Shown in pieces: positions 7,000 through 42,501 of a stretch of 64,000 nt of DNA. Position 1 is the first letter of the stretch. Each line of letters begins with the position of its first letter. The notes beneath the pieces were generated by a model. That model was given only the letters and a program-made list of their open reading frames with translations, was not told the DNA's origin and searched no databases. Origin of the DNA: Gemmatimonadota bacterium. GTDB taxonomy: Bacteria; Gemmatimonadota; Gemmatimonadetes; Gemmatimonadales; GWC2-71-9. The stretch lies in the NCBI GenBank assembly GCA_039592335.1, contig JBDHBX010000003.1, positions 131,056 through 195,055 of the forward strand. Reading direction: 5' to 3'. The position numbers were made by a program, and so were the translations under genes.

Positions 7000-7079
7000 C
7001 AAGCACTCCCAGGGTTTCCGAAGAGGCGGAAATATAAACGTGGCACGGACTTGGGGGCAAGCGGCCCCACGGAATTCGA

Positions 7080-7108
7080 TTGACAGGCTCCCGGCCGGAA
7101 CGTAACCT
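7080..7108 (+). promoter_or_regulatory. Sigma-70-type promoter of the Crp-led operon (TTGACA-N17-TAACCT), very short leader
   Basis: TTGACA at 7080-7085, a 17-nt spacer, then TAACCT at 7103-7108. The ATG at 7119 is only 10 nt after the -10 element and has no SD sequence. Confidence 0.55.
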
Positions 7109-7118
7109 AGGCCTGTTT

Positions 7119-7817
7119 ATGGGCGAAGATTCACGTGACGACGCGTCCCTTTCGGTGGCCGAGCGGCTCCGCAACATCCCGCTCTTCACACAGCTCACCG
7201 AGGAAGAGGTCACGCGCATCACCGAGGTGGCCCGGGAGCGAACCTACCCCAAGAACAGTGTCATCCTGTTCGAGGACGACCCGGGCGACGCCCTCTACGT
7301 GGTGCTCGCCGGCGAGGTGAAAGTGGTGCTGATCGGTGAGGACGGCCGCGAGGTCATCCTTTCGATGCTGCGCTCCGGCGACTTCTTCGGGGAGATGTCC
7401 CTGATCGACGATCAGCCCCGCTCGGCGCACGTGATCGCCACCGAGGACTCCAATCTGCTGGTGCTCAGGCGGGACGAGTTCCGGCAGTGCCTGGAGCAGG
7501 CGCCCCGCATCGCTCTGGGGCTGCTGCAAGCGCTCTCACGCCGCCTGCGCCGCGCCGACGACACGATCGGCGGGCTGGTGCTGCTCGACGTGAGCGGGCG
7601 GGTGGCGCGGATCCTGGTGGAGTTGGCCGACGAGCACGACGGGACGCACATCCCGCGCAAGATCACCCACCACATGCTCGCCCAGATGATCGGGTCGAGC
7701 CGCGAGACGGTCTCGCGCACGATCCGGGACCTGGGAGAACGGGGCCTCATCGAGGTCTCCCGAAAGGACATCGCCATCCGCGACCGCCCGGGTCTCGAGG
7801 AGCTAGCCGGACTTTAG
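7119..7817 (+). CDS. Crp/Fnr-family transcriptional regulator (cNMP-binding domain plus HTH)
   Basis: cNMP-binding beta-roll (GDFFGEMSLIDDQPRSAHVIA) and C-terminal HTH (SRETVSRTIRDLGERGLI). The listed TTG at 7080 is itself the -35 hexamer, so I use ATG 7119. Confidence 0.85.
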   Translation: MGEDSRDDASLSVAERLRNIPLFTQLTEEEVTRITEVARERTYPKNSVILFEDDPGDALYVVLAGEVKVVLIGEDGREVILSMLRSGDFFGEMSLIDDQPRSAHVIATEDSNLLVLRRDEFRQCLEQAPRIALGLLQALSRRLRRADDTIGGLVLLDVSGRVARILVELADEHDGTHIPRKITHHMLAQMIGSSRETVSRTIRDLGERGLIEVSRKDIAIRDRPGLEELAGL

Positions 7818-7909
7818 TGAGCCATGTCACGGGACCGACGTGACTCCACACCTTGTGTGATCGTCACCGCCGCCGGTACGTTCGCCGGGATTGTGACTGA
7901 ACCGGCCCG

Positions 7910-8785
7910 ATGACACACACGGTGACGATCTGGGGCGCGCGGGGGTCCATCCCCACCCCCGGCGCGTTGACCACCCGGTACGGGGGCAACACGCCTTGTG
8001 TCGCGGTGGAGCACAGTGGCGACGCGGGCGACCGGCTGGTCATCCTGGACGCGGGCACCGGCATCCGGCTCCTGGGACAGGAGTTGGTGGAGCGCGGCAA
8101 CGGCCCGCTGCAGGTGGACCTGCTGCTGAGCCACACCCACTGGGACCACATCCAGGGCATCCCGTTCTTCGCACCGTTCTTCGACGACGGGAACGAGGTG
8201 CGGGTCTGGGGGTCCAAGCAGGGGGACGTGGATCTCGACGCCATCCTGCGACAGCAGATGCACCCGGTGGTGTTCCCGGTGCCGCTCGATCGCGTCGCCG
8301 CGGAGTTGTTCGTGGAGCACGTGGAGCCGGGCACGTTCGAGATCGACGGCTTCGAAGTGGACGCGATTCGGCTGCGTCACCCCGGCAATACCCTGGGATA
8401 TCGGCTGACGCCGATGGGAGGCGGGGCCAGCATGGCCTACGTCACCGACAACGAGCTCGGGCCGGGCGGAGAGTACGACGTCGGGCTGCGGTGGCGCCGG
8501 AAGCTGGTGCAGTTCCTGAAGGACGTAGACGTGCTGATCCACGACGCGATGTACACGCCCCACGATCTCGACCAGCACCGCGGCTGGGGACACTCGTCGT
8601 ATGCCGAGGCGGTGACGCTGGCGGCCGAGGCACGCGTGGCACGGCTGGTGCTGTTCCACCACCGACCGGAGCACGACGACGCGGCCATGGACAACGTGGT
8701 CGAGGCGGCACAAACGGCCGCGGAGGAGTCGGGGCAGACCTTCGAGGTCATCGCGGCCACCGAAGGGATGCAGCTCACCCTCTGA
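7910..8785 (+). CDS. MBL-fold metallo-hydrolase (Lactamase_B_2 type)
   Basis: LLLSHTHWDHIQG (HxHxDH) plus downstream His/Asp ligands (IHDAMY, LFHHRPEHDD). Confidence 0.8.
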   Translation: MTHTVTIWGARGSIPTPGALTTRYGGNTPCVAVEHSGDAGDRLVILDAGTGIRLLGQELVERGNGPLQVDLLLSHTHWDHIQGIPFFAPFFDDGNEVRVWGSKQGDVDLDAILRQQMHPVVFPVPLDRVAAELFVEHVEPGTFEIDGFEVDAIRLRHPGNTLGYRLTPMGGGASMAYVTDNELGPGGEYDVGLRWRRKLVQFLKDVDVLIHDAMYTPHDLDQHRGWGHSSYAEAVTLAAEARVARLVLFHHRPEHDDAAMDNVVEAAQTAAEESGQTFEVIAATEGMQLTL

Positions 8786-8799
8786 GGATGGAGGTACGC

Positions 8800-9501
8800 A
8801 TGCGCTGGCGTTCGGTAATGGCCCTGACCCTGGCGGCGGGGCTCGCAGCACCTCAGGTCCTCCTGGGGCAGGACAGCCGGCCGGGCGTCGCGGTGATGCC
8901 CTTTGAGGACGGCGGGTCCTACGGCCAGGACGCGGAGGATTTCGAGGCGCTCACCGTGGGGATGCAGCAGTTGCTGCTCACGGAGTTCGCCATCAATGAC
9001 GCGCTGCGGGTCGTGGAGCGCGGTCGCATCAACGACCTCCTTGCCGAGATGGAGCTGGGCGCCTCGGGCACGGTGGACGCCGGCACCGCAGCCCAAGTCG
9101 GCAAGCTCGTGGGCGCCAGGTACATGGTGTTCGGGAGCTTCATCGACTGGTACGGCGACTTCCGCGTGAACGCGCGGATCGTCAACGTGGAGACGGGCGA
9201 GATCGTGAAGGTGGAGCGGGGCCGCGAGAAGCGGGAGAACCTGTTCCCCATGGTCGTGGACCTGGCGAACAACATCACCAGGGGACTCGACCTCCCGGTG
9301 CTCTCGGAGCAGGCGTTCGAGGGCCGCCGCGACCGCTCGGAGAACATCCCGCAGGAGGCGCTGAGGCTCTACAGCAAGGCCCTGCTGTACCAGGACCGTG
9401 GCGACACCGAGCGAGCCGTGGAACTGTTCAGCCAGGTGACCCGGGACTTCCCTGAGTACACGGAAGCCCAGGAGGCCTTGAGACAGCTCCAGCAGGGGTA
9501 G
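8800..9501 (+). CDS. Secreted CsgG/LpoB/FlgO-like domain protein with C-terminal TPR-like helix pair
   Basis: GGAGG lies 6 nt upstream of ATG 8800. Signal peptide MRWRSVMALTLAAGLAAPQVLLGQ. VAVMPFED...RVVERGRINDLLAEMELG...GARYMVFGSF resembles the CsgG/LpoB fold family. Confidence 0.6.
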   Translation: MRWRSVMALTLAAGLAAPQVLLGQDSRPGVAVMPFEDGGSYGQDAEDFEALTVGMQQLLLTEFAINDALRVVERGRINDLLAEMELGASGTVDAGTAAQVGKLVGARYMVFGSFIDWYGDFRVNARIVNVETGEIVKVERGREKRENLFPMVVDLANNITRGLDLPVLSEQAFEGRRDRSENIPQEALRLYSKALLYQDRGDTERAVELFSQVTRDFPEYTEAQEALRQLQQG

Positions 9502-9513
9502 TAACATAGGCGC

Positions 9514-10296
9514 GTGACGGCGCCAGTCGCAGCACTCGGGCAAGGAGCAGCGCGCTCGATCGCCTTGTTGGGGGCGCTGGCGCGCTTCTCCTTCTTCACT
9601 CTGGAGGCGGTGCGGTGGCTTCCCCGGGCCGGCCGCCGCGTAGCCTTCCGGGTGCTGCTCCGGCAGGTGTGGTTCACAGCCCTCCAGGCCCTCCCGATCA
9701 TCCTTGTCCTCTCGTCGATCCTCAGCTTCCTGGTGATCTCACAGGCGGTCCGGGAGCTGGGGCGGCTCGGCGCGACGGAGCTGCTGGGGCGGCTCATGGT
9801 GGTAGTCATCGTGCGGGAGCTGGGACCGCTGATCACGGCCCTGGCGGTGGCGGGCCGATCGGGCACGGCCATCGCGGCGGAGCTGGCCACCAACAAGGTG
9901 ATGGGCGAGATCAATGCGCTGGAGGGCATGGGCATCGATCCCCTGCACTACCACGTGCTGCCGCGCTTCGGGGCCGCCATCCTCTCGATCGTGGGGCTGA
10001 TCATCGTGTTCGATTTGGTCGCGATCGTCTCGGGCTTGCTGGCGGCCACGGCCAACGGGATGATGCCGGAGCGCTACTTCGACATCGTGCTCGCCTCGGT
10101 GTCGGCGGGCGACGTGTGGGTGACCGTGATCAAGGGACTCGTCTTCGGGATCATCGTGGGCACCATCCCCAGCTTCCACGGCCTCCGCGTGCGGGGGTCG
10201 CCCACCGAGATCCCGGTGGCGGCCAGCCGGGCCGCCGTGGGCAGCATCATCGCGATCTTCCTCTGCTCCGGCCTCTTCGTGATTCTCCTAGCATGA
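9514..10296 (+). CDS. mlaE: MlaE-family ABC transporter permease
   Basis: Multi-pass membrane protein with the conserved MlaE stretch RELGPLITALAVAGRSGTAIAAELATNKV..EINALEGMGIDP. Confidence 0.85.
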   Translation: MTAPVAALGQGAARSIALLGALARFSFFTLEAVRWLPRAGRRVAFRVLLRQVWFTALQALPIILVLSSILSFLVISQAVRELGRLGATELLGRLMVVVIVRELGPLITALAVAGRSGTAIAAELATNKVMGEINALEGMGIDPLHYHVLPRFGAAILSIVGLIIVFDLVAIVSGLLAATANGMMPERYFDIVLASVSAGDVWVTVIKGLVFGIIVGTIPSFHGLRVRGSPTEIPVAASRAAVGSIIAIFLCSGLFVILLA

Positions 10297-10961
10297 CGGC
10301 GCCGCTCTGCTTCGAGGACGTGGCCCTGCCGGGACTCGGCTCCCGGATCACGCTGGAGGTACCGGAGCACCGGGCGGTCGTGGTCACCGGCCCCGAGGCA
10401 AGCGGGGTGGACGCTCTGCCCGGGTACGCCCTGGCCCTCAGGCCCCCAGCGGCCGGCCGCGTGCTGCTCTTCGGGGAGGACGTGGCCGGCCTGTCGCGCC
10501 GCGACGCGCTCGCCTTCCGGCGGCAAGTGGGGTATTTGCCCGCCGGTGACGGCCTGCTGCACAACCTCTCCCTGCGGGACAACGTCGCCCTGCCCCTGCG
10601 CTACGGCAGCGACCTCACCGAGCGCGAGATCGACGGCCGCATCCGGATCATGCTGACGATGGTCAAGCTGCCCGACGCGCCGGACCTCCGGCCCGCCGAG
10701 GCCACCGAGGAACAGCGCCGGCGGACGGCCCTCGCGCGGGCGCTGGCGTTCGACCCCCACCTGGTGATCCTGGCCGACCCGTTCGACGGCTTGCCCACCC
10801 GGGCCGCCGCCGAGCTGCTGGAGCTTGCGCGAGGTGGGGAGACCGGGACAGGTTCGAGGCGCACCGTGTTCATGACGGGGCAGTTCATCCCCCAGCTGCT
10901 CGAGTCGCGGGTCGAGGTGCGGTACCGCCTCGCCAAGGGCGCGCTCGTGCGCGACACGTGA
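10293..10961 (+). CDS. MlaF-like ABC nucleotide-binding-domain protein with degenerate catalytic motifs (predicted pseudo-ATPase)
   Basis: ATGA overlap with mlaE. ABC fold is alignable, but Walker A reads GPEASGVD, signature ATEEQ, Walker B VILADP and H-switch MTGQ. Confidence 0.75.
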   Translation: MTAPLCFEDVALPGLGSRITLEVPEHRAVVVTGPEASGVDALPGYALALRPPAAGRVLLFGEDVAGLSRRDALAFRRQVGYLPAGDGLLHNLSLRDNVALPLRYGSDLTEREIDGRIRIMLTMVKLPDAPDLRPAEATEEQRRRTALARALAFDPHLVILADPFDGLPTRAAAELLELARGGETGTGSRRTVFMTGQFIPQLLESRVEVRYRLAKGALVRDT

Positions 10962-11013
10962 GCGGGAGGTAGCCACGGGACGCACCGATTTCCTCGTCGG
11001 GCTCTTCATCCTC

Positions 11014-11892
11014 GTGACCATTGGGATCGTGGTGGGCGCCGTGGTGCTGTCAAGCGGCCTGCTGGAGGGGCGCTACCAGCTGCACATGCTTGCCGCGGAG
11101 GCCGAGGGCCTTACCCAGGACACGCGCGTGGAGCTCCAGGGCCTCGAGATCGGGCGGGTCACGGCCGTCAACCCGCACCTCGACTCCGCGAGCAACCGGC
11201 TCGACTTCATCGCCACGCTGTCGATCCGCGAGCGCTTCCCCGACGGGACACGCCTGCAGCTCCCGATCGGTACCCAGGCGATCATCGCGCCGCCGCCAAC
11301 GCTGGTCGGCGCCGCCATCATCGAGTTCGAGATGCCCCCGCCCTCTCCGGCCTCTGCCTATCTGCAGCCCGGCGACACCCTCGACTCGGAGCGGCGCAGC
11401 AATATGATGGAGGCGCTGCTCGAGATCGCCACCGGCATGAAGGGGGACATTCTCGAAGCCCTCACCGAGACGCGCGACCTCGTGGTGAAGACGACGGCGA
11501 CCGTGGATGAGACAGGTACCCTGCTCGCCAGCGCCCGCCCCCAAGTGGAGCAGGTGCTGGACCAGCTGTCGCAGGGCCTGGAGCGCACCAACAGCATCCT
11601 GGCGCAGGTGGAGCCACGGGTCGGGCCCGTCAGCGACAGCATCATGATCGCGCTCGAGACCACGAACCGGCTGCTGGTGGAGCTCGACAGCCTCGCGATC
11701 ACCGCGCACGACATGGCGAGTGAGAACCGTGAGGACATCGACTTCGCGATTGATCGGCTCACCCGCTCCGCGGTGGTCTTCGAGCACTTCGCCGAGCAGC
11801 TCAGCCGCCGGCCGCTGCGCATGCTGTGGGGCGTCACACCTCCACCGCCACCCGACTCGGCGGTCGCCGACACCACCACGCCGTCGCCATGA
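11014..11892 (+). CDS. MlaD/MCE-family periplasmic substrate-binding protein
   Basis: N-terminal TM followed by an MCE-like beta-barrel start (VELQGLEIGRVTAVNP). The first canonical start is GTG 11014, but the MlaD-like residues RTDFLVGLFILV are encoded in frame upstream. The true start is therefore uncertain. Confidence 0.75.
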   Translation: MTIGIVVGAVVLSSGLLEGRYQLHMLAAEAEGLTQDTRVELQGLEIGRVTAVNPHLDSASNRLDFIATLSIRERFPDGTRLQLPIGTQAIIAPPPTLVGAAIIEFEMPPPSPASAYLQPGDTLDSERRSNMMEALLEIATGMKGDILEALTETRDLVVKTTATVDETGTLLASARPQVEQVLDQLSQGLERTNSILAQVEPRVGPVSDSIMIALETTNRLLVELDSLAITAHDMASENREDIDFAIDRLTRSAVVFEHFAEQLSRRPLRMLWGVTPPPPPDSAVADTTTPSP

Positions 11893-13826
11893 AGTACGCC
11901 CTGCTCCACACCGGCACGTTCGAGCTCGATGCCGTCGCGGCAGCCCTGGAAACCGAGGGCATCACACCGCAGTTGGTCGAGCCGCACGGCGAGCTGGCGG
12001 TGACCGGTTCACCCACCGTGTTGGTGCTCTCCGCGGCGAGCCGTGAGCGCTTCCCGGCCGACCGGTTACGACGGTTCGTGGGCGAGGGTGGAGCGGTGGT
12101 GGCGACCGGCGCCCTCAACGAGCAGGACGTGCCCGACGGGCTGCCCGAGGATCTGATCGCCGCCTTCGTGCCGCACCCGTGGCAGCCGCGCCAGCTCCTG
12201 GTGGCGCTGCGGGGCGCCTACCGCGAGGCCGCGGCCCGCGCCGACTCCATACGCGCGCGGCAGGAGGCGGCGTTCCGCACGCGCGAAATCAAGGAGCTCA
12301 CGCGCATCGGGATGGCGCTCTCCACCGAGCGTGACTACCACGCGCTGCTCGAGCTCATCCTGTCGCAGGCGCTGCGCATCACGGGCTCCGACGGCGGCAG
12401 CCTGTACATCGTGGAGCAGCAGGAGGACGGAACGAGGCGGCTGCGCTTCACCCTGTCCCAGAACGTCTCCCGGCCGGACATCCCGTTTGTCGAGTTCACC
12501 ATGGCGATGGACACGACCAGCATTGCGGGGTACGCGGCGACGACGGGCGAGCCGCTGGTGATCGATGACGTGTACTTCCTGCCGCCCGACGTGGACTACA
12601 CGTTCAACCGTTCGTTCGACGAGAAGTACGGGTACCGCTCGAAGTCGATCCTGACCGTCCCGATGATGGACCACAAGGACGAGGTCATCGGGGTACTACA
12701 GCTCATCAACCGCAAGCGCCACGGCGACGCCGAGCTCGCCGAACCCGAGGACTTCGACGCGGAGGTCATCCCCTACACGCACCGGCTGGTGGAGCTGGTG
12801 TCTTCCATGGCAGGACAGGCGGCCGTATCCATCGAAAACAGCCAGCTGTACGAGGACATCGAGCGGCTGTTCGAGGGGTTCGTGTTGGCGTCCGTGACCG
12901 CCATCGAGCAGCGCGACCCCACCACGTTCGGCCACTCCGGCCGTGTCGCCACAATGACGGTAGGACTGGCGGAGACCGTGGACCGGAACGCCTATGGCCC
13001 CTATCGCCACGTGCGGTTCTCCAGGGAGGAGATCCGGGAGATCCGCTACGCCGGCCTGCTGCACGACTTCGGCAAGGTCGGCGTGCGGGAACAGGTGCTG
13101 GTGAAGGCCAAGAAGCTCTACCCGCCGGACCTCGCGCTGATCCGGCAACGATTCGCGTTCATCCGCCGCACGACCGAGGCCGAGTACCACCGGCAGCGCG
13201 CCGAGTACCTCGAAAAGCACGGAAGGGACGGATACGACAAGTTCCTGCGCACCCTCGAAGGAGAACATGGGGAGCAGTTGGAGGAGCTCGACCGGTTCAT
13301 GCACTTGGTCCTCGAATCAAATGAGCCCACCGTGCTTCCGGAGGGGAGTTTCGAGAACCTGATCCACTTCGCCGACCGGTACTTCGAAGACCTCGATGGC
13401 CGCAGGCAGCCCTATCTCACCGGCGACGAGGTGCGGTTCCTGAGTATTCGCAAGGGGAGCCTGGATGAGAGCGAGCGGTTGGAGATCGAGAGCCACGTGA
13501 CCCATACCTACCGCTTCCTGCTTCAGATTCCCTGGACCAAGGAGCTGCAGTCGATTCCGGCCATCGCCTACGGGCATCATGAGAAGCTGGACGGCACGGG
13601 CTACCCGCGGCGGGTCGCGGGCGGTCAGATCCCGATTCAGACCCGCATGATGACGATCGCCGACATCTTCGACGCGCTCACCGCCGCCGACCGGCCCTAC
13701 AAGCGCGCGGTCCCCGCCCCCAAGGCAGTCGACATCCTCGAGACCGAGACCGAAGCGGGAATGCTCGATCCCGATCTGCTGAAGCTGTTCGTGGAGGCGA
13801 AGGTGTTCGACAAGCGGGAGGAGTGA
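11889..13826 (+). CDS. GAF plus HD-GYP domain protein (predicted c-di-GMP phosphodiesterase) with N-terminal receiver-like domain
   Basis: ATGA overlap with the MlaD stop. HD (GLLHDFGK) and HHEKLDGTGYPR motifs are intact. The central region is GAF-like. Confidence 0.9.
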   Translation: MKYALLHTGTFELDAVAAALETEGITPQLVEPHGELAVTGSPTVLVLSAASRERFPADRLRRFVGEGGAVVATGALNEQDVPDGLPEDLIAAFVPHPWQPRQLLVALRGAYREAAARADSIRARQEAAFRTREIKELTRIGMALSTERDYHALLELILSQALRITGSDGGSLYIVEQQEDGTRRLRFTLSQNVSRPDIPFVEFTMAMDTTSIAGYAATTGEPLVIDDVYFLPPDVDYTFNRSFDEKYGYRSKSILTVPMMDHKDEVIGVLQLINRKRHGDAELAEPEDFDAEVIPYTHRLVELVSSMAGQAAVSIENSQLYEDIERLFEGFVLASVTAIEQRDPTTFGHSGRVATMTVGLAETVDRNAYGPYRHVRFSREEIREIRYAGLLHDFGKVGVREQVLVKAKKLYPPDLALIRQRFAFIRRTTEAEYHRQRAEYLEKHGRDGYDKFLRTLEGEHGEQLEELDRFMHLVLESNEPTVLPEGSFENLIHFADRYFEDLDGRRQPYLTGDEVRFLSIRKGSLDESERLEIESHVTHTYRFLLQIPWTKELQSIPAIAYGHHEKLDGTGYPRRVAGGQIPIQTRMMTIADIFDALTAADRPYKRAVPAPKAVDILETETEAGMLDPDLLKLFVEAKVFDKREE

Positions 13827-13829
13827 GCC

Positions 13830-15356
13830 TCAGGGAGTCCCCCAGCCCCCTCCCCCCGGCGTCTCGACCTGCAGCACGTCCCCAGACTTCATCGTGAGCG
13901 CCACGCGCCCTCCCAGCGGCTCGCCATTGAGCGTGTTGCGGCCTGGGGCTCCGGGCTCCCCTCCGGCGGCCCCCTGTGGCGCGCGGCGACGGCGCTCGCT
14001 GATCACGCTCACCTCCACCTCCGTGAGCGCCTGGTAGGCACGGATCACCCCTTCTCCGCCGCGACGCTGCCCGGCGCCGCCACTGGAGGAGCGGCGAGCG
14101 TACGTCACGATCCGCATGGGGTGTTCCAGCTCGAACACCTCCACCGGCGTGTTGCGGGTGTTGGACATGCCGACGTGCACGCCCGACGGCCCGGACGCTC
14201 CCGGTGAGGCACCCTGCCCCCCCCCGAGCGTCTCATAGTACGTCCACCCGTCGCCGCCGAGCACCACGTTGTTCATCGTGCCCTGCCCCTGGGCGGCGAG
14301 GTCGGCCGCCTCGGCGAGCGCGAGAAACAGCGTGTCAGTGATCCGCTGCGACGTCTCCACGTTCCCGGCGGCGACCGCCCGGGGCCACGGTGCGTTCACC
14401 AGGGATCCCTCGGGGGCCCACACCGTCACGGCGCGGTGCATCCCGCCGTTGGTTGGGATGTCCTCGTCCACCAGGCACCGCAGCACGAACAGCACGGCTG
14501 AGCGCGTGACCGAGAGCGGGCAGTTCACGTTGCCGGCGGCGGCCGCCGCGGTGCCGGCGAAGTCCACCTTCAAGCCGGCGTCGGTGACTTCCACCGTCAC
14601 ACGGATCGGGATGTCCTCTTCGGTGACGCCGTCGCCCTCGAGCCAATCCTCGGCACCGTAGCGACCCGGCCGGACACGCGCGGCGATGGCCGCCCCCGTG
14701 CGCCGCTCGGCGTAGTCGAGCAGATCGCGTACCGCACCCTCCACGTAACCACGACCGTGGCGCTCGATGAGCTCGCGGTAGCGCGCGGCGCCCCGTTCGC
14801 ACGCCGCGAGCTGCGCGGCGAGGTCGCCCCGACGCATGTCGGGCGTGCGCACATTGGCAAGGAGCAGCTGCTCCACGTCCCGTTGCACGGCCCCCCGCGC
14901 GGTCCACTTGACCGGCGGGATGACGAGGCCTTCCTGGAAGATCTCCGTCGAGTGGGGCGGCATGCTCCCCGGACGCGAGCCGCCGACATCGGAGTGGTGG
15001 GCCCGCACCACGGTGTAGGCGGCTACGGCTCCGTCCACCTCCACCGCATGGACCATCGTGATGTCGGGGAGGTGGGTGCCACCGGTGTACGGATCGTTCA
15101 ACACGAACGTGTCGCCGGGCTCGGGATTCAGTCTGCGTACCGCCGACACCGCTTCCGGCATCGCCCCTAGGTGCACCGGGATGTGCGCCGCCTGGGCGAT
15201 CATCTCGCCGTCGGCGCTGAACACGGCTGCCGAAGAGTCCCGCCGCTCGCGCACATTGGGGGAGAGCGCGGTGGCCACCAACACCGCGCCCATTTCCTCC
15301 GCGAGGCCGGAGAACGCGTGGGCCATGACCTCGAGGCCGATAGCGTCCAGCGTCAT
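13830..15356 (-). CDS. Hydantoinase B/oxoprolinase-family protein
   Basis: Length and conserved blocks (NDPYTGGTHLPD, GGGGWGTP at the C-terminus). ATGA overlap with the upstream HyuA-type gene. Confidence 0.85.
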   Translation of the reverse strand: MTLDAIGLEVMAHAFSGLAEEMGAVLVATALSPNVRERRDSSAAVFSADGEMIAQAAHIPVHLGAMPEAVSAVRRLNPEPGDTFVLNDPYTGGTHLPDITMVHAVEVDGAVAAYTVVRAHHSDVGGSRPGSMPPHSTEIFQEGLVIPPVKWTARGAVQRDVEQLLLANVRTPDMRRGDLAAQLAACERGAARYRELIERHGRGYVEGAVRDLLDYAERRTGAAIAARVRPGRYGAEDWLEGDGVTEEDIPIRVTVEVTDAGLKVDFAGTAAAAAGNVNCPLSVTRSAVLFVLRCLVDEDIPTNGGMHRAVTVWAPEGSLVNAPWPRAVAAGNVETSQRITDTLFLALAEAADLAAQGQGTMNNVVLGGDGWTYYETLGGGQGASPGASGPSGVHVGMSNTRNTPVEVFELEHPMRIVTYARRSSSGGAGQRRGGEGVIRAYQALTEVEVSVISERRRRAPQGAAGGEPGAPGRNTLNGEPLGGRVALTMKSGDVLQVETPGGGGWGTP

Positions 15357-17320
15357 GCGCGCTCCAGGACGACCGCGCCGGTGGCGTGGACGGTGCCGTG
15401 CCAGCCCGGCTCGATCCGAATCGTGCAGTCGATCACGTCGAGCATGAACGGTCCATCCACGACGGTCCCGGATCCGAGGGCGTCGAGCGGCGCGCGCCCA
15501 TCGCCGCCCGGCGGCTCCGGCGCGCCCACACGCTCGGCCAGCCGCACGTCGGCGCCCCGCCGGCTCGCGACCACGCGCAGGTTGACCAGCTCGACCGGAC
15601 GCGCCGCATCCGCGTGGCCGAACCGCTCGCGGTGCGTGTCGTGGAAGGCGGCGGCCGTATCATCGCCCGAAGCTCCCACGGGCACGGTGAGCTCATAGCC
15701 CTGCCCCGGGTAGCGGCAGTCGGCAAGGCGCAGCAGCTCCGCTCCCACGAGGGCGTCCCGTGCCTGGTCCTCCAGGTCGGTGAAGGCTGCCTGCGAGCGC
15801 TGAGCGTCGAGCTCGTGTGCGAGGGCATGCAGCGACGACGCGAACTCGAGCTTGTCCGGCGCCGAGGCCAGACCCAGTGCCGACAGGACCCCCGCGTGCG
15901 GTGGCACAAGCGCGCGCTCCATCCCCAGGCTGTCGGCCATGCGACAGGCAAACATGGGACCGGCTCCACCGAACGCGACCAGCGTCATGGAGCGAGGGTC
16001 GACGCCCCGCTCGACGCTCACGCGCCGGAGCGCCCGCACCATGGCGGCGTTGGCGACCTCGATGACGCCGTCCGCGCACCGCTCGAGGGAAAGTCCCGCC
16101 GCCTCCGCCACGTGTCCCACCGCATCTTCCGCCTTCGCCACATCGAGGCGCAGTCCGCCGGCCAACGGATGCGCGGCGTCGAGCCACCCCAGCACCGCGG
16201 CCGCGTCAGTCACGGTCGCTTCGGTCCCTCCGGTGCCGTAGCATGCCGGCCCGGGTATCGCACCCGCGCTGCGCGGTCCCACCCGCAATGCGCCACCTTC
16301 ATCCACCCATGCCACGCTGCCGCCGCCCGCCCCCACGGTCTCGATCAGTACGTGGGGCAGCGCCAACGGCACTCCTCCCACGGCCCCGGCGGCTTGCATC
16401 ATGGGCCGACCACCCAGCACGATGCTGGCGTCGGCGCTGGTGCCACCCATATCGAGCGTGAGAAGATCGTGCATCCCGAGCTGCGCACCGACGAGTCGCG
16501 CGCCCTCGACCCCACCGGCTGGACCCGAAAGCGCGAGCGCTGCCGCGCGCTCGCCCGCCTGGGCGACGCTCAGCGTCCCGCCGTTCGAGGCCATGATCCG
16601 CAGCTCCCCGATGCCGCGGTCCGTGGCGTCTGCGCCCATGCGGGCCAGATAGCCGCTCACCTTGGGACGGAGATACGCCTCGACCGTCGTGGTGCTGGTG
16701 CGCTCATACTCGCGAAACACCGGCAGCACCTCGCAACTGGCAGCGACGGGCGTGTCGGGGAGGGCTTGGCGCAGCGCGGCCGCGAGACGCCGCTCGTGCG
16801 TCGGGTCACGGAAGCTGAACAGGAGCGTCACGGCCACAGCATCGGGCCGGTGTCGCTCGACCTCGGCCACCACGCGTTCTACCTCGGCGTCGACCAACTC
16901 CCGCACCACACCCTCGGCCCCGACCCGCTCGTCGACCCCGACGACGTCGTCGCGCGCCGTGAGGGGCGGCGGGTGGTCACGCGAGAGATCGTAGAGGTGG
17001 GAGCGATCCTGCCGCCGGAGCCAGAGGAGGTCCTCGAAACCCGCCGTGGCAACGAGCACCACACGGCCACTGCTGCGCTCCAGCAGGGCGTTCGTGGCAA
17101 CGGTGGTGCCGTGAATCAGGGCCTGGGCCGCGGACTCCCCGGCCCGCAACCGGCTCACCTCGTCCCACACCTCGGCGGCAACGGTGCCGGGCGTCGATCT
17201 GACCTTGCCGACCGTGACATCGCCGTGGGATGAGAGCGCAACGACATCGGTGAACGTGCCACCGACATCGACGCCGAACCGTGCTACCGCCGACGCCACA
17301 GCGTGTACCCGACGAGGCAC
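15353..17320 (-). CDS. Hydantoinase A/oxoprolinase-family protein
   Basis: N-terminal FGVDVGGTFTDVV and central DMGGTSAD ATPase motifs. The start may instead be GTG 17299, because 17320 overlaps the lnt stop by 37 nt. Confidence 0.85.
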   Translation of the reverse strand: MPRRVHAVASAVARFGVDVGGTFTDVVALSSHGDVTVGKVRSTPGTVAAEVWDEVSRLRAGESAAQALIHGTTVATNALLERSSGRVVLVATAGFEDLLWLRRQDRSHLYDLSRDHPPPLTARDDVVGVDERVGAEGVVRELVDAEVERVVAEVERHRPDAVAVTLLFSFRDPTHERRLAAALRQALPDTPVAASCEVLPVFREYERTSTTTVEAYLRPKVSGYLARMGADATDRGIGELRIMASNGGTLSVAQAGERAAALALSGPAGGVEGARLVGAQLGMHDLLTLDMGGTSADASIVLGGRPMMQAAGAVGGVPLALPHVLIETVGAGGGSVAWVDEGGALRVGPRSAGAIPGPACYGTGGTEATVTDAAAVLGWLDAAHPLAGGLRLDVAKAEDAVGHVAEAAGLSLERCADGVIEVANAAMVRALRRVSVERGVDPRSMTLVAFGGAGPMFACRMADSLGMERALVPPHAGVLSALGLASAPDKLEFASSLHALAHELDAQRSQAAFTDLEDQARDALVGAELLRLADCRYPGQGYELTVPVGASGDDTAAAFHDTHRERFGHADAARPVELVNLRVVASRRGADVRLAERVGAPEPPGGDGRAPLDALGSGTVVDGPFMLDVIDCTIRIEPGWHGTVHATGAVVLERA

Positions 17321-18861
17321 ACCGTCGCCAGCAGGGACAGCGTCCCTACCCAGTCACCCAACCGGGCGTAGAGCGTCACCCCGTCGGTGGTGAGGATCTC
17401 GCGCGTCTCGAACGTGCGAACGTTGAGGGCGGTCCGCTGGTGCTCCCGCCCCAGGGGATCGACAAACTCCGAGATCCCCGAGTTGGCCGCCCTGGCAATG
17501 CCCACACGGTTCTCGATGGCGCGCATGACCAGGTGCGCGGCGTGCTGGTAGGGCCCAATGGTGCGGCCGAACCACGCGTCGTTCGTGATGTTGAGGAGGA
17601 ACTCCGCGCCGTTCCGCCGGTAGCCGCGCGCGAGGTTCTCGAACGCCGACTCGTAGCAGATCAGCGCCCCGAAACGCAGCACCGTGTCCGAGCCCCGCAG
17701 CCCGAGCTCGTACACCGGCAGCGCCGTGCCCGGTGTGAAGCCGCCGAAGAACCGCGAGTGGATCCAGCGCGGGCCGGCGATGGGCACGCGCTCCGTGATC
17801 GGCACCAGATACCGCTTGTGGTAGACGGGGTACCGGTCCGACAAGCCCCAGTCGTTGAACAGATACGCCGCGTTGTAGAACTCGACGCGACCCTCCTCCG
17901 TCTGCGCGAAGTCGAGAGCGCCGAGGAAGATCGAGGTCCGCGTGGCACCACCAAACTCCCTCACGTTCACCATCCATATCGGGTTCTGCCGGAAGTAACC
18001 CGGCACGGCGACCTCCGGCCACACGACCAGGTCGGGATCACGAGACCGCGCTTTCTCGAGCAGAGACTCATTCCCCCTCAGCGCCTCGGCGGTCAGGTGG
18101 AGCAGCCCGTTCACGATCGAGTCCTGCTGCGCCTGCTCCCACTTCTCCTCGTACCCGATGTTGGGCTGCACGACCGTCACCTTCCCCGCCGTCCGGAGAT
18201 CGACGGTGCGCTCGCGCACGACGCCGTACATCAGGGCCACCACGATGCCAATACCGACGCCGCCGGCGAGTACGCCGGCCTGCCGCCGCATGGCCCGGTG
18301 TCGCCAAGCGAGCGCGAGCGCGACGTTCGCGAGCACGAGGAGCCAGGTGACGCCCCGCGCGCCCACGATGTCGGCGAGCTGCACCACCGTGGGGTAGCCG
18401 GTGAGCGAGGTGCCCAGCCCCAGCCACGGGAAGCGGAAGTCACCCTGATGCCCCACGATCCACTCGAGCGCCGTCCACAGCAGCGGGAAAATGAGCAGCA
18501 CGGAGAGCCGCGTGGTCCGCATTACCCATCCGGTCACCGCGAACAGGACCGCACTGTAGAGCGCCAGGCCGATGACGGCGCCGGCGTATCCCAGGACGGA
18601 CAGCGGCGTGAAGTGCCACAGGGCAACGACCATCCAGTGGAGTAACAGACCGTTGGCCACCAGGCCGAACCAGAATCCCTGGGCCAGGTGCCGACGCACC
18701 GGCCGCGGGTCGTCGGCGCCTTCGAGGATCAGCCAGACGGCTGGGATGAGACAGAGAAACGAGGGGAGGAAGAGATGGAACGGCGGGTAGGCGGCGCAGG
18801 TGAGGAGGGCCCCACCAATCACCAGGCGCCAGTCCCCTGGCGGCAGCGCGAGCGCCTTCAC
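17284..18861 (-). CDS. lnt: Apolipoprotein N-acyltransferase
   Basis: Multi-TM N-terminal half plus a CN-hydrolase domain (VVWPE, ICYES). 525 aa. Confidence 0.9.
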   Translation of the reverse strand: MKALALPPGDWRLVIGGALLTCAAYPPFHLFLPSFLCLIPAVWLILEGADDPRPVRRHLAQGFWFGLVANGLLLHWMVVALWHFTPLSVLGYAGAVIGLALYSAVLFAVTGWVMRTTRLSVLLIFPLLWTALEWIVGHQGDFRFPWLGLGTSLTGYPTVVQLADIVGARGVTWLLVLANVALALAWRHRAMRRQAGVLAGGVGIGIVVALMYGVVRERTVDLRTAGKVTVVQPNIGYEEKWEQAQQDSIVNGLLHLTAEALRGNESLLEKARSRDPDLVVWPEVAVPGYFRQNPIWMVNVREFGGATRTSIFLGALDFAQTEEGRVEFYNAAYLFNDWGLSDRYPVYHKRYLVPITERVPIAGPRWIHSRFFGGFTPGTALPVYELGLRGSDTVLRFGALICYESAFENLARGYRRNGAEFLLNITNDAWFGRTIGPYQHAAHLVMRAIENRVGIARAANSGISEFVDPLGREHQRTALNVRTFETREILTTDGVTLYARLGDWVGTLSLLATVCLVGYTLWRRR

Positions 18862-18898
18862 AGGCCGACTTCGCAGCCGTCGGCCGCGGAGCGGTGGC

Positions 18899-19540
18899 TC
18901 ACGGACTCCCCTTACGAGGCAGACGATACGTCAGGCCGCCGCGCACCGATGCCGTCAGCAGCTCGGTCGTCGCCTCCCCGCGCGCGTCGGCCGTGAGCAC
19001 GAGCGATTTAGTGAGCCCGATCTCGAACCCGAGCGATCCGACGATGCCCACATCCACCATGTCCAGCGCCCGCTCCACGAAGGTCCCGTTGATCGCTTCG
19101 CCATCACCGTTGCGCAGATGCAACCCCAGACCCAGGCCCGTGTAGGGCCGCACGCGCCGCGCTGGCTCGAACAGGTAGTGGAAGTCGAGCGCGAGTCCGA
19201 AATCGGCCCAGCTGATCGTCCCCAAGTCGACCGCAACGGTGGGATCGTCGATGATGTCCTCGAGCTGGCGCTCGAACTCGTCGATCTCCTCCTGGCGGAA
19301 CTGGCCCTTGAAGTACGAAGCGCTGAGCAGCACTCGCACCTTGGGCGCGAAGTTGCCGAAGTCGATGCGCAGCGCACCGACGGGCTCGGTCGTCAGTCGA
19401 TTGGACCAGACCACACCGCCCTCGAGGCCGATGCCCGCGAGGCGAAGACCCTCATAGCTGAACTGATCCCAGAAGCCCTGGGCCCACACGGACCCCGGCA
19501 GGAGCAACATGGCGAGCCCGAGTCTAATACCAGCGCTCAA
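18899..19540 (-). CDS. Putative outer-membrane beta-barrel protein (hypothetical)
   Basis: Signal peptide ending VWAQG. Alternating hydrophobic strands and GLGLGLHL-type beta-barrel patterns. I recognised no specific family. Confidence 0.45.
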   Translation of the reverse strand: MSAGIRLGLAMLLLPGSVWAQGFWDQFSYEGLRLAGIGLEGGVVWSNRLTTEPVGALRIDFGNFAPKVRVLLSASYFKGQFRQEEIDEFERQLEDIIDDPTVAVDLGTISWADFGLALDFHYLFEPARRVRPYTGLGLGLHLRNGDGEAINGTFVERALDMVDVGIVGSLGFEIGLTKSLVLTADARGEATTELLTASVRGGLTYRLPRKGSP

Positions 19541-20747
19541 GAGTCGTTCCCGGGAAGTAGGTCGTCACGATCGTGTGCGCGTCCTGCCCGGCTCGCGCCC
19601 GGCCGACGGCTCCCCACTGGCACATCCCGACTCCGTGCCCCCACCCCGCGCCAGTTGCCGTGACGCGCTCGACTCGACCTTCACGCCGGTCGACGGCGAG
19701 CTGGAAGGCGCTGCTGCCCAGGGACCGCCCGTCCGGTCTGGTGAAGACGGCGCGAACGTCGGGACCGAACACGGGTATCTCACCGCGGCTCACCTCGATC
19801 CGCACTTCGGCAACCCTGCCCGACGGTCCCGTGCGCTGCACACGCACATCGCGCAACTCGTCGAGCATAGCGGTCTCCACACCGAGCCGTGAGGACACCG
19901 TTCGCCGTAATATACGCTCCAGCGTTGCCGCGTCCCACTCGACCGTCCAGCGGAAGTTGGGCGAGATATCGCAGTAGTGCCCGCCCGACCGCCGATCCGA
20001 CACGGGCGTCAGGTACGGCAGCCGCCGGCCGAAGCGGAACACCTCCTCGGGCGAGGCGGTGGAGTATCCGCAGGTCGAGTGGTAGAAGGTGCTGATAAGC
20101 TCCCCGCGGTAGGTGACCACCGTCCCCGAAGTCGAGCGTACGCCGGCCCACCCGCGATCGCTCTCGACCTCCACGCCCCCATACGCCTGATCCGTCACCG
20201 TCGCCCGGAGATCATAGCCTTCCGCCGCGAACCGGCCGCGGTTCTTGAGCGCGTAGGTCCGCGTCACGATAGCTTGGGCCTCGACTGCCGCCTGCTCGTT
20301 CGGGGCGCGTCGCCCCAGCTCGGCATTCACCACCCCAGCGACGTACGCCTCGAGCGACAGCTCGTTCACCGCGTTGAGGGCCCCATCGTGGACGAACACC
20401 TCGACGACCCCGCGGTAGGGCTTGCCGTTCACCTCTACGAACCGCGAGCGATCGAGGCTGACGAAGGTGATACGCTCGTACCGCCCGGCACCGGGTCCTG
20501 ACACCCGAATGGCGCGGCCGTCGGGAGCCACGCGCACCTCTGCGTCCGCAGAGACTCGGAAGGCCACGCTGCCGCTCACCACGCCGCCAACGGTTCCCTC
20601 CCCCGTGATGCGTACCTCGCTCGCACCTACCACCAGGCCGATGCGAACGTCGGGCTCGTCGGTCACGCCGGGCGAGGGAGTCGGCTTGCCGCACGCCGCG
20701 AGCAGCGTCGCGATCCCGACCCCGAGTAGCACCGAGGACGGCCTCAT
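19524..20747 (-). CDS. SpoIID/LytB-domain protein (amidase enhancer/lytic transglycosylase family)
   Basis: Conserved SpoIID blocks LEAYVAGVV..E, FYHSTCGYSTAS and GHGVGMCQWGA. Confidence 0.85.
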   Translation of the reverse strand: MRPSSVLLGVGIATLLAACGKPTPSPGVTDEPDVRIGLVVGASEVRITGEGTVGGVVSGSVAFRVSADAEVRVAPDGRAIRVSGPGAGRYERITFVSLDRSRFVEVNGKPYRGVVEVFVHDGALNAVNELSLEAYVAGVVNAELGRRAPNEQAAVEAQAIVTRTYALKNRGRFAAEGYDLRATVTDQAYGGVEVESDRGWAGVRSTSGTVVTYRGELISTFYHSTCGYSTASPEEVFRFGRRLPYLTPVSDRRSGGHYCDISPNFRWTVEWDAATLERILRRTVSSRLGVETAMLDELRDVRVQRTGPSGRVAEVRIEVSRGEIPVFGPDVRAVFTRPDGRSLGSSAFQLAVDRREGRVERVTATGAGWGHGVGMCQWGAVGRARAGQDAHTIVTTYFPGTTLERWY

Positions 20748-22069
20748 TCTCCCTCCGGCCTCGCCGTGGCGTGGAAGTCGTAGTCGACGTTGTCGTCGAG
20801 GGTGACGCGGAGAAGATCACCGGGCCGGGCCCAGCCACCCTGCGCCACAAAGGTCACCCCGTCCACATCGTCGGCCTGCCAGGGAGTGCGCCCCACGTGG
20901 GTCGCCCCCGCTTCGTCGGGGTCGGCGATGCGATCCACCAGCAGCGCAATCTCACGACCTACGTAGCGCCCGAGCCGCTCCTCGGAGATCGTCCGCTGCA
21001 GCTCCAGCAGCTCCTCCTGCCGCGCTCGCTTCACGTCGTCGGGCACGTCGTCGTCGAACTCGGCGGCGCGAGTGCCCTCCTGCTCGGAGTATGTGAACAC
21101 GCCGAGCCGCTCGAACGTCATCTCCTCGGCGAAATCCAACAGCGTCCTGAAGTCCGCGTCGGTCTCGCCCGGAAATCCTACGATCGTCGTGGTGCGGATC
21201 GTGATGTCGGGGATGCGCGACCGGAGCCGGGACACCTTCTCGCGAATCGAGTCGCGTCGCTCCGGACGGCGCATGCGCTCGAGCACCGAGTCCGATGCGT
21301 GCTGGATCGGGATGTCGAGGTAGGGCACGATGCGAGGCTCGCCGGCCATCAGCTCCACGAGCCGCTCGGTGAGACCCGCGGAGTACACGTAGAGCAGACG
21401 GAACCACGGCACGCTCGTCCCCTCCAGCAACGCCTCCAGGAGGTCCGGCAACTGGGGTCCGCCGCGCCCCAGATCACGACCGAAATGTCCCAAGTCCTGC
21501 GCCACCAGGTTGATCTCCTTCGCGCCCTGGGCCTCCAACTGGCGCGCCTCCCGCACCAGCCGCTCCACGGGCTCGGAGCGGTGCTTGCCCCGCATCAGCG
21601 GGATGGCACAGAAGGCGCAGCCGTGGTCGCACCCTTCGGAGATCTTGAGGTAGCGCACGTGCGGCGCGTCGCCGAGGTACTGGCGCACGCCGGGATGGCT
21701 CGCAGCCGGATCGTCGATCAGCCCCCGTTCCGCCAGTGCGGGCACGAGCGTGTGGAGGTCGTGGAACCCGAGGAGGAGATCCACGTCGGGCATCTCCTGT
21801 CGCAACTCGTCCTGGTAGCGTTGCACCAGGCAGCCGACGGCGACCACCGCCTTGACGTCGCCCGCCTGCTTCAGATCGGCGGCGTGCAGGATGGCCTCGA
21901 TCGATTCCCGCTTCGCGGCGTCGATGAAGCCGCACGTATTCACGAGCACGACATCGGCCGCACCCAGGTTCCCCACGACCTCGGCACCGTGTCCCACGAG
22001 GTCACCGACCAGACGCTCGGAGTCGACGGTCGCCTTGTCACAGCCGAGGGAGATGATGCCGAGTTTCAT
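20744..22069 (-). CDS. rimO: Ribosomal protein S12 methylthiotransferase (radical SAM MTTase)
   Basis: MKLGIISLGCDKATVDSE N-terminus. Radical-SAM CDHGCAFCAIP. TRAM-like C-terminus. ATG 22069 fits better than the listed start at 22117. Confidence 0.9.
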   Translation of the reverse strand: MKLGIISLGCDKATVDSERLVGDLVGHGAEVVGNLGAADVVLVNTCGFIDAAKRESIEAILHAADLKQAGDVKAVVAVGCLVQRYQDELRQEMPDVDLLLGFHDLHTLVPALAERGLIDDPAASHPGVRQYLGDAPHVRYLKISEGCDHGCAFCAIPLMRGKHRSEPVERLVREARQLEAQGAKEINLVAQDLGHFGRDLGRGGPQLPDLLEALLEGTSVPWFRLLYVYSAGLTERLVELMAGEPRIVPYLDIPIQHASDSVLERMRRPERRDSIREKVSRLRSRIPDITIRTTTIVGFPGETDADFRTLLDFAEEMTFERLGVFTYSEQEGTRAAEFDDDVPDDVKRARQEELLELQRTISEERLGRYVGREIALLVDRIADPDEAGATHVGRTPWQADDVDGVTFVAQGGWARPGDLLRVTLDDNVDYDFHATARPEGE

Positions 22070-22095
22070 CGAGACTGAATATAGGGGGGAATGGA

Positions 22096-22137
22096 AAACG
22101 GGGAACGGCGCGCCCATCCACTGTCCGTTCCCTGTTT
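22096..22137 (-). terminator. Intrinsic terminator downstream of the sigma-factor gene
   Basis: GGGGAACGG (22100-22108) pairs with CCGTTCCC (22125-22132) and is extended by A/T pairs. On the minus strand the stem is followed by CGUUUUCC. Confidence 0.6.
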
Positions 22138-22154
22138 CGAGCTTGCGCCTGCCG

Positions 22155-23012: not shown

Positions 23013-23281
23013 ACGAGCAGTTCCTCCGACGGGTCCTCTAGTGGGAACCTGCGCTATACGACAACGGGCAGCCAGTCGAAGCGGCGCCCGTATTCATCCC
23101 GGCACGATCAGCGTACGCGGCGGTGTCACAACAGACGGGGAGGTCAAGGATCCCGACCGATCGCAGCGATAGGTCGGAGCGAGGCGAACCTTGTGCACAG
23201 CGGAATGCGCAGTGTATCCCAACCGCTGCCAACCGGACGCGATCCTGCAGGGTCGATCTCCCCCCAAAGAGCTTTTTTACG

Positions 23282-23533
23282 TTAGTCAGGCCGAGCCAAC
23301 GGCGCAACTGCCACGGACCACCCGCGGGCCGCCGCCCAGGCACGCAGGGCCGTCGCCAGCTCGCCGACCTCGCACTCGTGCTCCAGCGTTGCACTCACAC
23401 ACGCCGCGCGCTCACCCGCTGCGAGCTCCGCCCGCACCACCCTGGCTCGCGGTACACCCCGGAGCGACTCGAGATCCAATGCCGCGCCACCCACACTCAA
23501 TATGACGGCGACGGACGCGCGCAGGTTCCGCAT
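23282..23533 (-). CDS. Hypothetical 83-aa protein (weakly supported)
   Basis: The only ORF with genome-like GC3 in a 650-bp gap. No family recognised and no clear SD. Confidence 0.25.
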   Translation of the reverse strand: MRNLRASVAVILSVGGAALDLESLRGVPRARVVRAELAAGERAACVSATLEHECEVGELATALRAWAAARGWSVAVAPLARPD

Positions 23534-42494: not shown

Positions 42495-42501
42495 ATCGGC
42501 C

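Follow-up and report, generated by a model that had tools for sequence, protein, structure and literature searches.

A 64-kb stretch of Gemmatimonadota DNA (contig JBDHBX010000003.1, assembly GCA_039592335.1; G+C ~68%), referred to below as the window, carries seven plus-strand genes (g1 to g7, 7119-13826) that combine an Mla-type envelope transporter with proteins of cyclic-nucleotide and cyclic di-GMP (c-di-GMP) signalling. We observed that the ATPase motifs are missing from the MlaF-like subunit of this cluster, g5, and that the cluster is conserved across the order Gemmatimonadales. We propose an ATP-independent Mla-like envelope complex that would be coupled to c-di-GMP hydrolysis under control of the cyclic AMP (cAMP) type, an integrated model to which we give an even chance. 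The open reading frame (ORF) list, with a Pfam search that backed every domain assignment, gave the following genes (lengths in amino acids, aa):

7119-7817, plus strand: g1, CRP-family regulator, 232 aa (Pfam cNMP_binding, 98.6 bits; HTH_Crp_2, 71.4 bits).
7910-8785, plus strand: g2, hydrolase of the metallo-beta-lactamase (MBL) fold, 291 aa (Pfam Lactamase_B_2, 67.7 bits).
8800-9501, plus strand: g3, secreted CsgG-N/TPR protein, 233 aa (Pfam CsgG, 61.1 bits, residues 26-115 only).
9514-10296, plus strand: g4, MlaE-type permease, 260 aa (Pfam MlaE, 192.6 bits; cut-off 22.5).
10293-10961, plus strand: g5, predicted MlaF-like pseudo-ATPase, 222 aa (Pfam ABC_tran, only 38.6 bits).
10975-11892, plus strand, with a probable ACG start: g6, MlaD/MCE protein (Pfam MlaD, 32.9 bits; cut-off 25.1).
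11889-13826, plus strand: g7, pseudo-receiver/GAF/HD-GYP protein, 645 aa (Pfam GAF and HD_5, the latter 102 bits).

The Pfam assignments confirmed, for all seven genes, the content and order that had been claimed in an earlier note on this DNA. The intergenic gaps given there were also borne out when we read the junctions directly: from g1 to g7 they measure 92, 14, 12, −4 (ATGA), 52 and −4 (ATGA) nt, the 52-nt gap being counted to the first canonical start of g6, GTG 11014. The G+C content at third codon positions was 0.89-0.93 for each of the seven genes.

We aligned g5 residue by residue to the MlaF proteins of A. baumannii and P. aeruginosa. The nucleotide-binding and catalytic motifs had changed as follows:

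Walker A: GPSGTGKTT to GPEASGVDA (Lys to Val, Thr to Asp).
Q-loop: Gln to Ala.
Signature: LSGGM in solved MlaF (LSGGQ) to ATEEQ.
Walker B: Asp to Ala.
Catalytic residue: Glu to Asp.
H-loop: His to Gly.

All five ATPase motifs were missing in 17/17 aligned g5 homologues, down to 59% identity, and they were also gone in the divergent cluster representatives P0241-P0243. Among the 17 homologues the former Walker B and catalytic positions were variable. Other segments of the protein were near-invariant (GYLPAGDGLLxNLSL...LPLR, ARALAFDP, PFDGL and RGGE). The AlphaFold2 (AF2) model of g5 had a pLDDT of 91.3, and its top Foldseek match was E. coli MlaF (6xbd_I; TM 0.88, rmsd 2.2 Å). From this model we are confident that g5 retains an MlaF-like nucleotide-binding fold.

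The dN/dS of g5 was 0.13-0.19, similar to that of its neighbour genes, which indicates purifying selection. These values, together with the conserved length of the protein, ruled out a decaying pseudogene. As a control we used an ABC exporter in the same window (43479-45341, minus strand). Its motifs were canonical, ruling out a lineage-wide degeneracy of ABC proteins. Because the motif loss is family-wide, the fold is kept, selection is purifying and the exporter control is canonical, we read g5 as a maintained pseudo-enzyme that would be unable to bind or hydrolyse ATP. The earlier note had hinted that no active MlaF was encoded here; that hint was confirmed and sharpened to the loss of five catalytic motifs throughout the family.

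An exhaustive profile search with g5 returned just 27 cluster representatives at E ≤ 1e-30, in a few 50%-identity clusters. The next relatives, 26-43% identical, still have the Walker A Lys, but LSGGQ and the catalytic Glu are already gone. We see in g5 the apparent end point of a wider grade of degenerate MlaF-like subunits that has not been described. Outside the g5 family, its nearest relatives by sequence are the P0262, P0270 and P0283 clusters of uncultured bacteria (P0262 is 43% identical, against 26-29% for canonical MlaF). They share with the window cluster the E-F-D gene order, a TPR partner and the loss of LSGGQ and the catalytic Glu, but they differ in that the Walker A Lys and Walker B Asp are kept, MlaD is longer, a TPR lipoprotein lies downstream and no Crp, MBL or HD-GYP gene is present. 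Within the wider MlaF-like set from uncultured bacteria (P0262, P0265, P0270, P0274, P0283 and P0290), DDP, DQP or DTP replaces DEP. The loci of this set (L084, 2255-5798; L085; L089, 4185-7667) are arranged as MlaE, the MlaF-like subunit, a long MlaD ('Helical_needle') and a TPR lipoprotein. The proteins encoded downstream of MlaD in these semi-degenerate relatives are TPR-like lipoproteins, and a comparison showed them not to be significantly similar to g3 or g7.

For the conservation analysis we fetched 80 species-representative loci with the MlaF-like protein profile, 74 of them from Gemmatimonadota, and mapped the window proteins onto them by tblastn. The order Crp-MBL-CsgG/TPR-MlaE-MlaF-like-MlaD-HD-GYP was kept in 74/74 Gemmatimonadota loci, as far as the contigs extend. 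The neighbourhood check that the earlier note had called for was therefore strongly positive. The lowest protein identities across loci were ~51% for g5, 30% for MlaD and 45-58% for HD-GYP, and an outlier of 51% identity from the clustered protein library likewise has the cluster. Close relatives were all labelled Gemmatimonadota, Gemmatimonadales or Gemmatimonadaceae; the cluster is conserved order-wide in the Gemmatimonadales. The seven genes were never rearranged, whereas the flank downstream of g7 varies between loci: hyuB/hyuA follow g7 directly in many, and in many others hyuB is missing or displaced. Junctions were conserved as well, with median gaps of 15 nt (g2-g3) and 8.5 nt (g3-g4), a −4 overlap (ATGA) between g4 and g5 in 37/72 loci and the same overlap between g6 and g7 in 61/64.

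We compared the transporter genes with known Mla systems. The g4 protein aligns near full length with the MlaE of P. aeruginosa, A. baumannii and E. coli and with mycobacterial YrbE1A. The g6 protein has an N-terminal transmembrane (TM) helix, an MCE domain, a helical extension of ~150 aa and a Pro-rich tail. Its TM segment is conserved, and it matches the MCE family TIGR00996 at E = 8e-15, under the cut-off of that model. It is weakly similar to Mce4_CUP1. The best relative of g6 in the Protein Data Bank (PDB) is 13hr, a 312-aa 'Mce/MlaD domain-containing protein', which aligned with residues 6-265.

Coding-type conservation in g6 extends upstream of GTG 11014, where TGRTDFLVGLFIL is conserved with synonymous variation. 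A conserved Shine-Dalgarno sequence (GGGAGG, 10964-10969) lies 5 nt ahead of ACG 10975 in the window. MlaD almost certainly begins ahead of GTG 11014. Across the window's clade (L001-L010 compared) this ACG, with GGAGG 5-6 nt before it, is the only start candidate that follows an in-frame stop, and MlaD probably starts there, at a non-canonical codon; the g5-g6 gap then shrinks from 52 to 13 nt. In L008 and L010, two loci of the clade, the ACG comes shortly after an in-frame TGA, and no ATG, GTG, TTG, CTG or ATN precedes the TM-coding segment. Other clades have GTG, ATG or CTG at the equivalent position.

No gene for STAS/MlaB, MlaC or MlaA was found within ±10 kb, and no second MlaE, MlaF or MlaD was found within ±10 kb in any locus or elsewhere in the window. 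The earlier note had treated the lack of MlaB and MlaC as a departure from canonical operons. The lack itself stood, but it is not anomalous outside Proteobacteria: the ancestral core is MlaEFD, to which Proteobacteria and their allies added MlaABC (PMC10665443). The same survey lists one to four MlaE/MlaD copies in Gemmatimonadetes genomes (up to four MlaE and three MlaD), some with a clustered MlaF and some MlaE-MlaD pairs without one (PMC10665443, Supplementary Data 1). It assigned MlaF by synteny alone, without checking catalytic motifs.

Like MlaFEDB of E. coli, A. baumannii and P. aeruginosa, the window cluster encodes a contiguous MlaE permease, MCE-type MlaD and subunit of MlaF fold. 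It differs in that g5 has neither the ATP motifs nor the C-terminal extension (222 vs 269 aa), MlaB and a clustered MlaC are absent, MlaD carries a helical extension and signalling genes for cyclic nucleoside monophosphates (cNMPs) and c-di-GMP are added. The minimal, ancestral MlaEFD system of Veillonella parvula is alike in its MlaE-F-D core without MlaA, MlaB or MlaC, its elongated MlaD and its overlapping start and stop codons (PMC10665443). However, V. parvula MlaF was described as much like its counterpart in model diderms, and a beta-barrel of the outer membrane forms the end of V. parvula MlaD (PMC10665443), whereas the cluster described here has a dead ATPase, only a helical extension on MlaD and signalling neighbours instead of tolC/tamB. 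The module thus has an MlaE permease, an MCE protein and an MlaF-fold subunit but lacks a catalytic ATPase, so we count it among the Mla/MCE ABC systems as a variant and do not call it an MlaFED transporter.

We observed that the catalytic motifs of the g7 HD-GYP domain are intact. H392-D393, H563-H564-E565 and G571-Y572-P573 were invariant in 24/24 homologues, and the length of 645 aa was the same in essentially all of them. The protein is laid out as a pseudo-receiver (residues 1-95), a long helix, a GAF domain and an HD-GYP domain with a helical insert of ~100 aa. Its relatives in the PDB are PmGH of Persephonella marina (4mcw) and V-cGAP3 (5z7c). Like g7, both combine a GAF with an HD-GYP domain and carry the metal and GYP motifs; g7 adds the pseudo-receiver, the long connecting helix and the insert in HD-GYP. 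In the AF2 model (pLDDT 78.5) the receiver-GAF part resembles the dual-sensor kinase 6oap/6oaq, and a model comparison gave cNMP-binding GAF domains, including the cAMP-bound Lcd1, as the nearest structural neighbours of the GAF domain. Candidate substrates of g7 are c-di-GMP and cyclic GMP-AMP (cGAMP).

The N-terminus of g7 had no Pfam Response_reg match even at E = 10. In the homologue alignment beta1 is not followed by an acidic pair, the conserved Pro is not preceded by a Lys, and the phospho-acceptor position of beta3 is Ser in the window and D, T, H, G or A in homologues. On its modelled fold this region is receiver-like yet fails the features of a receiver, and we class it as a pseudo-receiver. 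A STAS/MlaB-like identity for the N-terminus found no support; for residues 1-130, Pfam at E = 10 returned only a non-significant match to DUF4350.

In Xanthomonas the HD-GYP c-di-GMP phosphodiesterase RpfG and the CRP-family factor Clp work in one pathway, and the window cluster likewise pairs an HD-GYP phosphodiesterase with a CRP-family factor. The two pairs differ in that Clp senses c-di-GMP, whereas the cNMP cassette of g1 is canonical and cAMP-dependent CRPs are the proteins closest to it. RpfG also has a true receiver fed by RpfC, whereas g7 has a pseudo-receiver and a GAF domain and is encoded beside an Mla-like complex.

The phosphate-binding cassette of g1 is intact (FGEMSL...PRSA; FGEMSLIDDQPRSA read in the sequence). 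T. thermophilus Crp (4ev0) has the very same recognition helix, SRETVSR, which shares R-E-x-x-x-R with E. coli CAP, where this helix reads GTGA. The best solved relatives of g1 are T. thermophilus Crp 4ev0, M. tuberculosis Crp, GlxR and E. coli CAP, and it scored 135.5 bits against the NCBIfam CRP equivalog, under the cut-off of 266. Judged from these sequence features, g1 is a CRP proper of the cAMP-receptor type and not of the FNR type. We located three regulatory elements around this gene:

7080-7108, plus strand: promoter P1, −35 TTGACA (7080-7085), N17, −10 TAACCT (7103-7108).
7817-7844: CRP-box-like element, the palindrome GTGAGCCATGTCAC (7817-7830) and a third half-site GTGAC (7840-7844).
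7853-7882, plus strand: promoter-like element P2 for g2-g7, TTGTGT (7853-7858), N18, TACGTT (7877-7882).

P1 is the TTGACA-N17-TAACCT promoter that the earlier note had proposed, and we found it present and conserved: of 60 regions upstream of orthologues, 57 contained TTGACA, where chance would give 0.018 per region, and 56 contained TTGAC[AT]-N16-18-TANNNT. The consensus scanner missed it because its −10 hexamer fits only 3/6 positions. In the window's clade the −10 element ends 10 nt from the ATG (7119 in the window), so the g1 mRNA would be nearly leaderless.

The g1-g2 spacer is conserved in length among loci (median 89 nt). The palindrome GTGAGCCATGTCAC has the form GTGA-N6-TCAC, begins on the final nucleotide of the g1 stop (TAG 7815-7817) and is the single occurrence of that motif in the window. 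We found TGA-N6-TCAC at the equivalent spot in 46/61 spacers and TGA-N6-NCAC-N8-11-GTGA in 56/61. TGA, CAC and GTGA were the sole invariant columns of the spacer alignment, which is otherwise 53% identical. We infer from the conserved GTGA-N6-TCAC adjoining the gene that this predicted CRP box would be bound by g1.

In the window P2 ends 27 nt ahead of the g2 ATG. A sigma70-like element, TTGNNN-N16-19-TANNTT, was present in 25/61 spacers, and the distance from the end of its −10 to the g2 start was 27 nt in 20 of these loci, 24 nt in four and 49 nt in one. A more distant subclade of 14 other loci has a sigma54-like TGGCAN-N5-TTGC at the equivalent position. These −24/−12-type loci (L016, L018, L026, L028, L035, L039, L043, L045, L049, L054, L060, L062, L064 and L066) carry the element (TGGCAG-N5-TTGCA) 22-32 nt ahead of the g2 start, at 30-32 nt in 13/14. 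This looks like a switch of promoter class at a fixed site. The upstream TGA...CAC...GTGA element is kept in both clades.

Because the conserved-length spacer holds a conserved box and a second promoter-like element, the layout points to a regulator gene with its target operon of six genes, g2-g7, behind it. The single seven-gene operon of the earlier note is thus probably a regulator plus a six-gene operon, a refinement that does not upset the original description. A promoter and terminator scan gave no convincing intrinsic terminator inside the cluster, and with none between g1 and g2, transcription from P1 may run on into g2-g7. Two poor terminator-like sites within coding sequence and weak internal promoter matches at 9478, 9673 and 11381 from the consensus scan were not taken as real. 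An Rfam scan of the whole window at gathering thresholds returned no match, and so no c-di-GMP or other riboswitch in the cluster.

The metal motif of g2, S74-HTHWDH-80 (SHTHWDH), fits [T/S]HXHXDH, the signature of the atypical class-II cNMP phosphodiesterases Rv1339, YfhI and CpdA (PMC9293780). With Rv1339, YfhI and C. glutamicum CpdA, g2 shares an MBL fold of the Lactamase_B_2 type, a relatedness to RNase Z and this signature (PMC9293780), but it falls short of the curated family model, and its activity is predicted from the motif. Against that model, NCBIfam NF041851 ('cyclic nucleotide-degrading phosphodiesterase'), g2 matched profile positions 3-235 of 253 at E = 4e-14. A weak precomputed Pfam match pointed to Anti-Pycsar_Apyc1. 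The suggestion in the earlier note that the MBL protein might be a cNMP phosphodiesterase is therefore backed by the signature and the full-length match, with a score below the family cut-off (52.5 vs 400 bits); we regard g2 as a candidate atypical class-II cyclic-nucleotide phosphodiesterase.

The g3 protein, predicted to be periplasmic, has a signal peptide, no lipobox Cys, an alpha/beta domain like CsgG-N, LpoB and TolB-N, and a C-terminal TPR region. It had weak Pfam matches to LpoB and TPR, and a Shine-Dalgarno sequence, GGAGG, lies 5 nt ahead of its ATG at 8800. The CsgG-N/TolB-N-like and TPR region matches positions 281-431 of TIGR04510 (E = 3e-7), a 'putative peptide modification system cyclase', which is a much larger protein containing a g3-like module.

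The cluster is flanked upstream by the divergent rpmE-prfA-prmC genes and downstream by the convergent hyuB/hyuA. The divergent rpmE promoter, TTGCCC-N18-TATATT (7031-7060, minus strand), is conserved in many loci, and the GGAAATATA block occurs in 28/60 upstream regions together with a conserved ACTTGGGGGCAAG block. At the other end the stop codons of g7 (TGA 13824-13826) and of hyuB are 3 nt apart (window 13824-13832), which leaves no intergenic room for a terminator, so both transcripts must terminate within the opposite gene. The L081 gene list for ~15396-23800 downstream holds an apolipoprotein N-acyltransferase (LNT_N and CN_hydrolase), a SpoIID-domain protein, a MiaB-like radical-SAM enzyme, a sigma-70 factor and an NtrC-type sigma54 activator. 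Adjoining the full-length ABC exporter, the plus-strand ORF 42463-43446 reads by eye as a MerR-type helix-turn-helix fused to a B12-binding-like domain (compare the CarH/LitR type).

Under the integrated model, g1, probably with cAMP, would drive the six-gene operon from P2. The GTGA-N6-TCAC box would then sit ~60-66 bp upstream of the start site predicted for P2, and the MBL enzyme g2 may feed back on the cyclic nucleotide that activates g1. MlaE, pseudo-MlaF and MlaD would form an inner-membrane complex that works without ATP, either as a passive conduit for lipids or hydrophobic ligands or as a sensor of envelope state. With its MlaE-contacting region kept, g5 would offer a dead nucleotide-binding domain (NBD) as a scaffold or as a transducer toward HD-GYP. 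The conserved translational coupling of MlaD and HD-GYP may reflect a physical or functional link, by which the state of the envelope (its lipids) would modulate c-di-GMP hydrolysis. The interpretation in the earlier note was thus borne out in part: its trafficking module that would respond to, or signal through, cNMP and c-di-GMP stays a proposal, and ATP-driven trafficking by the module alone is unlikely because its ATPase is dead.

In a more specific transducer version, which is possible but on the whole doubtful, MlaE-MlaD with the dead NBD would be a transporter-derived trans-envelope receptor and no longer a transporter. A lipid or hydrophobic ligand in the MCE/MlaE pocket would act on the pseudo-ATPase, and the signal would pass from there to pseudo-receiver, GAF and HD-GYP and set the c-di-GMP level. 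The cAMP/Crp pair and the MBL phosphodiesterase would then make up a transcriptional feedback loop.

The alternative that survives best, though we hold it to be unlikely, is a passive, ATP-independent lipid bridge or channel like PqiABC and LetAB. Here g5 would be a structural plug, and the phosphodiesterases and Crp would have no functional tie to the bridge, sharing the transcript for regulatory economy. MCE systems without ATPases exist, and several features of the cluster fit a bridge: the ~150-aa helical extension of MlaD, its weak Mce4_CUP1 similarity and its full-length similarity to the 312-aa 13hr, and the nearest g5 relatives lying in MlaE-F*-long MlaD-TPR lipoprotein clusters, where signalling genes are absent. 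Trans-envelope MlaD bridges have also been discussed (PMC10665443). However, an MlaD of 292-305 aa is much shorter than known envelope-spanning MCE proteins, and the ATGA overlap of MlaD with HD-GYP in 61/64 loci, with the full signalling set in every locus, exceeds what regulatory convenience would explain.

A genuine ATP-driven lipid transporter, in which an active MlaF/MceG-type ATPase from elsewhere would replace or pair with g5 and the signalling genes would be merely co-regulated, is quite improbable. In Actinobacteria one orphan MceG/Mkl serves several Mce operons, and MlaE and MlaD look intact here. The MlaE-MlaD pairs without MlaF and the multiple MlaE and MlaD copies of surveyed Gemmatimonadetes also fit such an ATPase in trans (PMC10665443). 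But g5 is translationally coupled to MlaE (ATGA in 37/72 loci) and is under purifying selection. Its Q-loop and helical-subdomain segment, GYLPAGDGLLxNLSL...LPLR, which contacts the permease by homology with MlaF, is near-invariant, and with this segment kept, g5 should occupy the NBD sites. Since both the P-loop (Walker A) and the signature are gone from g5, a heterodimer with an active partner would have both of its composite sites crippled, and neither the loci (±10 kb) nor the window offer a second MlaE, MlaF or MlaD.

Mere regional synteny, in which the seven genes would form no functional system, is very improbable: the divergent prmC-prfA-rpmE genes are conserved in the same loci and hyuB/hyuA come directly after the cluster in many, but the seven genes share one strand, g2-g7 overlap or are separated by ≤ ~15 nt, the regulatory elements are conserved, and the genes never rearrange despite identities down to 30-50% while the downstream flank changes.

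Several observations weigh against the integrated model itself. The equal synteny of the upstream prmC-prfA-rpmE genes means that a conserved neighbourhood alone is no proof of functional linkage. The CRP-box-like element is one site per locus, and a different factor might bind there, or the site might fold into a weak hairpin (GTCAC...GTGAC). P2 is sigma54-like in one subclade, and sigma54-type promoters normally require an enhancer-binding protein and not CRP. The g2 score against NF041851 lies far under the curated cut-off. The interaction of g5 with HD-GYP is a prediction, and transcription is likewise read from sequence. Finally, an active ATPase encoded elsewhere could serve this permease, because Gemmatimonadetes carry 1-4 copies of MlaE/MlaD, some with a clustered MlaF (PMC10665443).

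In literature searches covering HD-GYP together with MlaE/MlaD, Mla in Gemmatimonadetes and MCE systems with a pseudo-ATPase, no paper tied HD-GYP to Mla genes and none described an MCE system whose ATPase subunit is inactive. The profile search also brought to light a wider grade of degenerate MlaF-like subunits, so far uncharacterised, from uncultured bacteria. The conserved promoters and CRP box provide experimental handles in a poorly studied phylum, and the cluster should be of interest to specialists in envelope biogenesis and in second messengers.

Mla/MCE systems are central to outer-membrane lipid homeostasis, and the direction of transport and the need for ATP are debated. As an order-wide module under purifying selection, the cluster is a natural experiment in which an MlaE-MlaD complex would be useful without ATP hydrolysis. 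An HD-GYP enzyme, a candidate cNMP phosphodiesterase and a regulator of the CRP type are genetically tied to it throughout, which points to a link between envelope state and second messengers; the literature searches gave no earlier description of one. If the receptor version of the model is true, this natural ATPase-null Mla would bear on the dispute over what ATP contributes to lipid movement.

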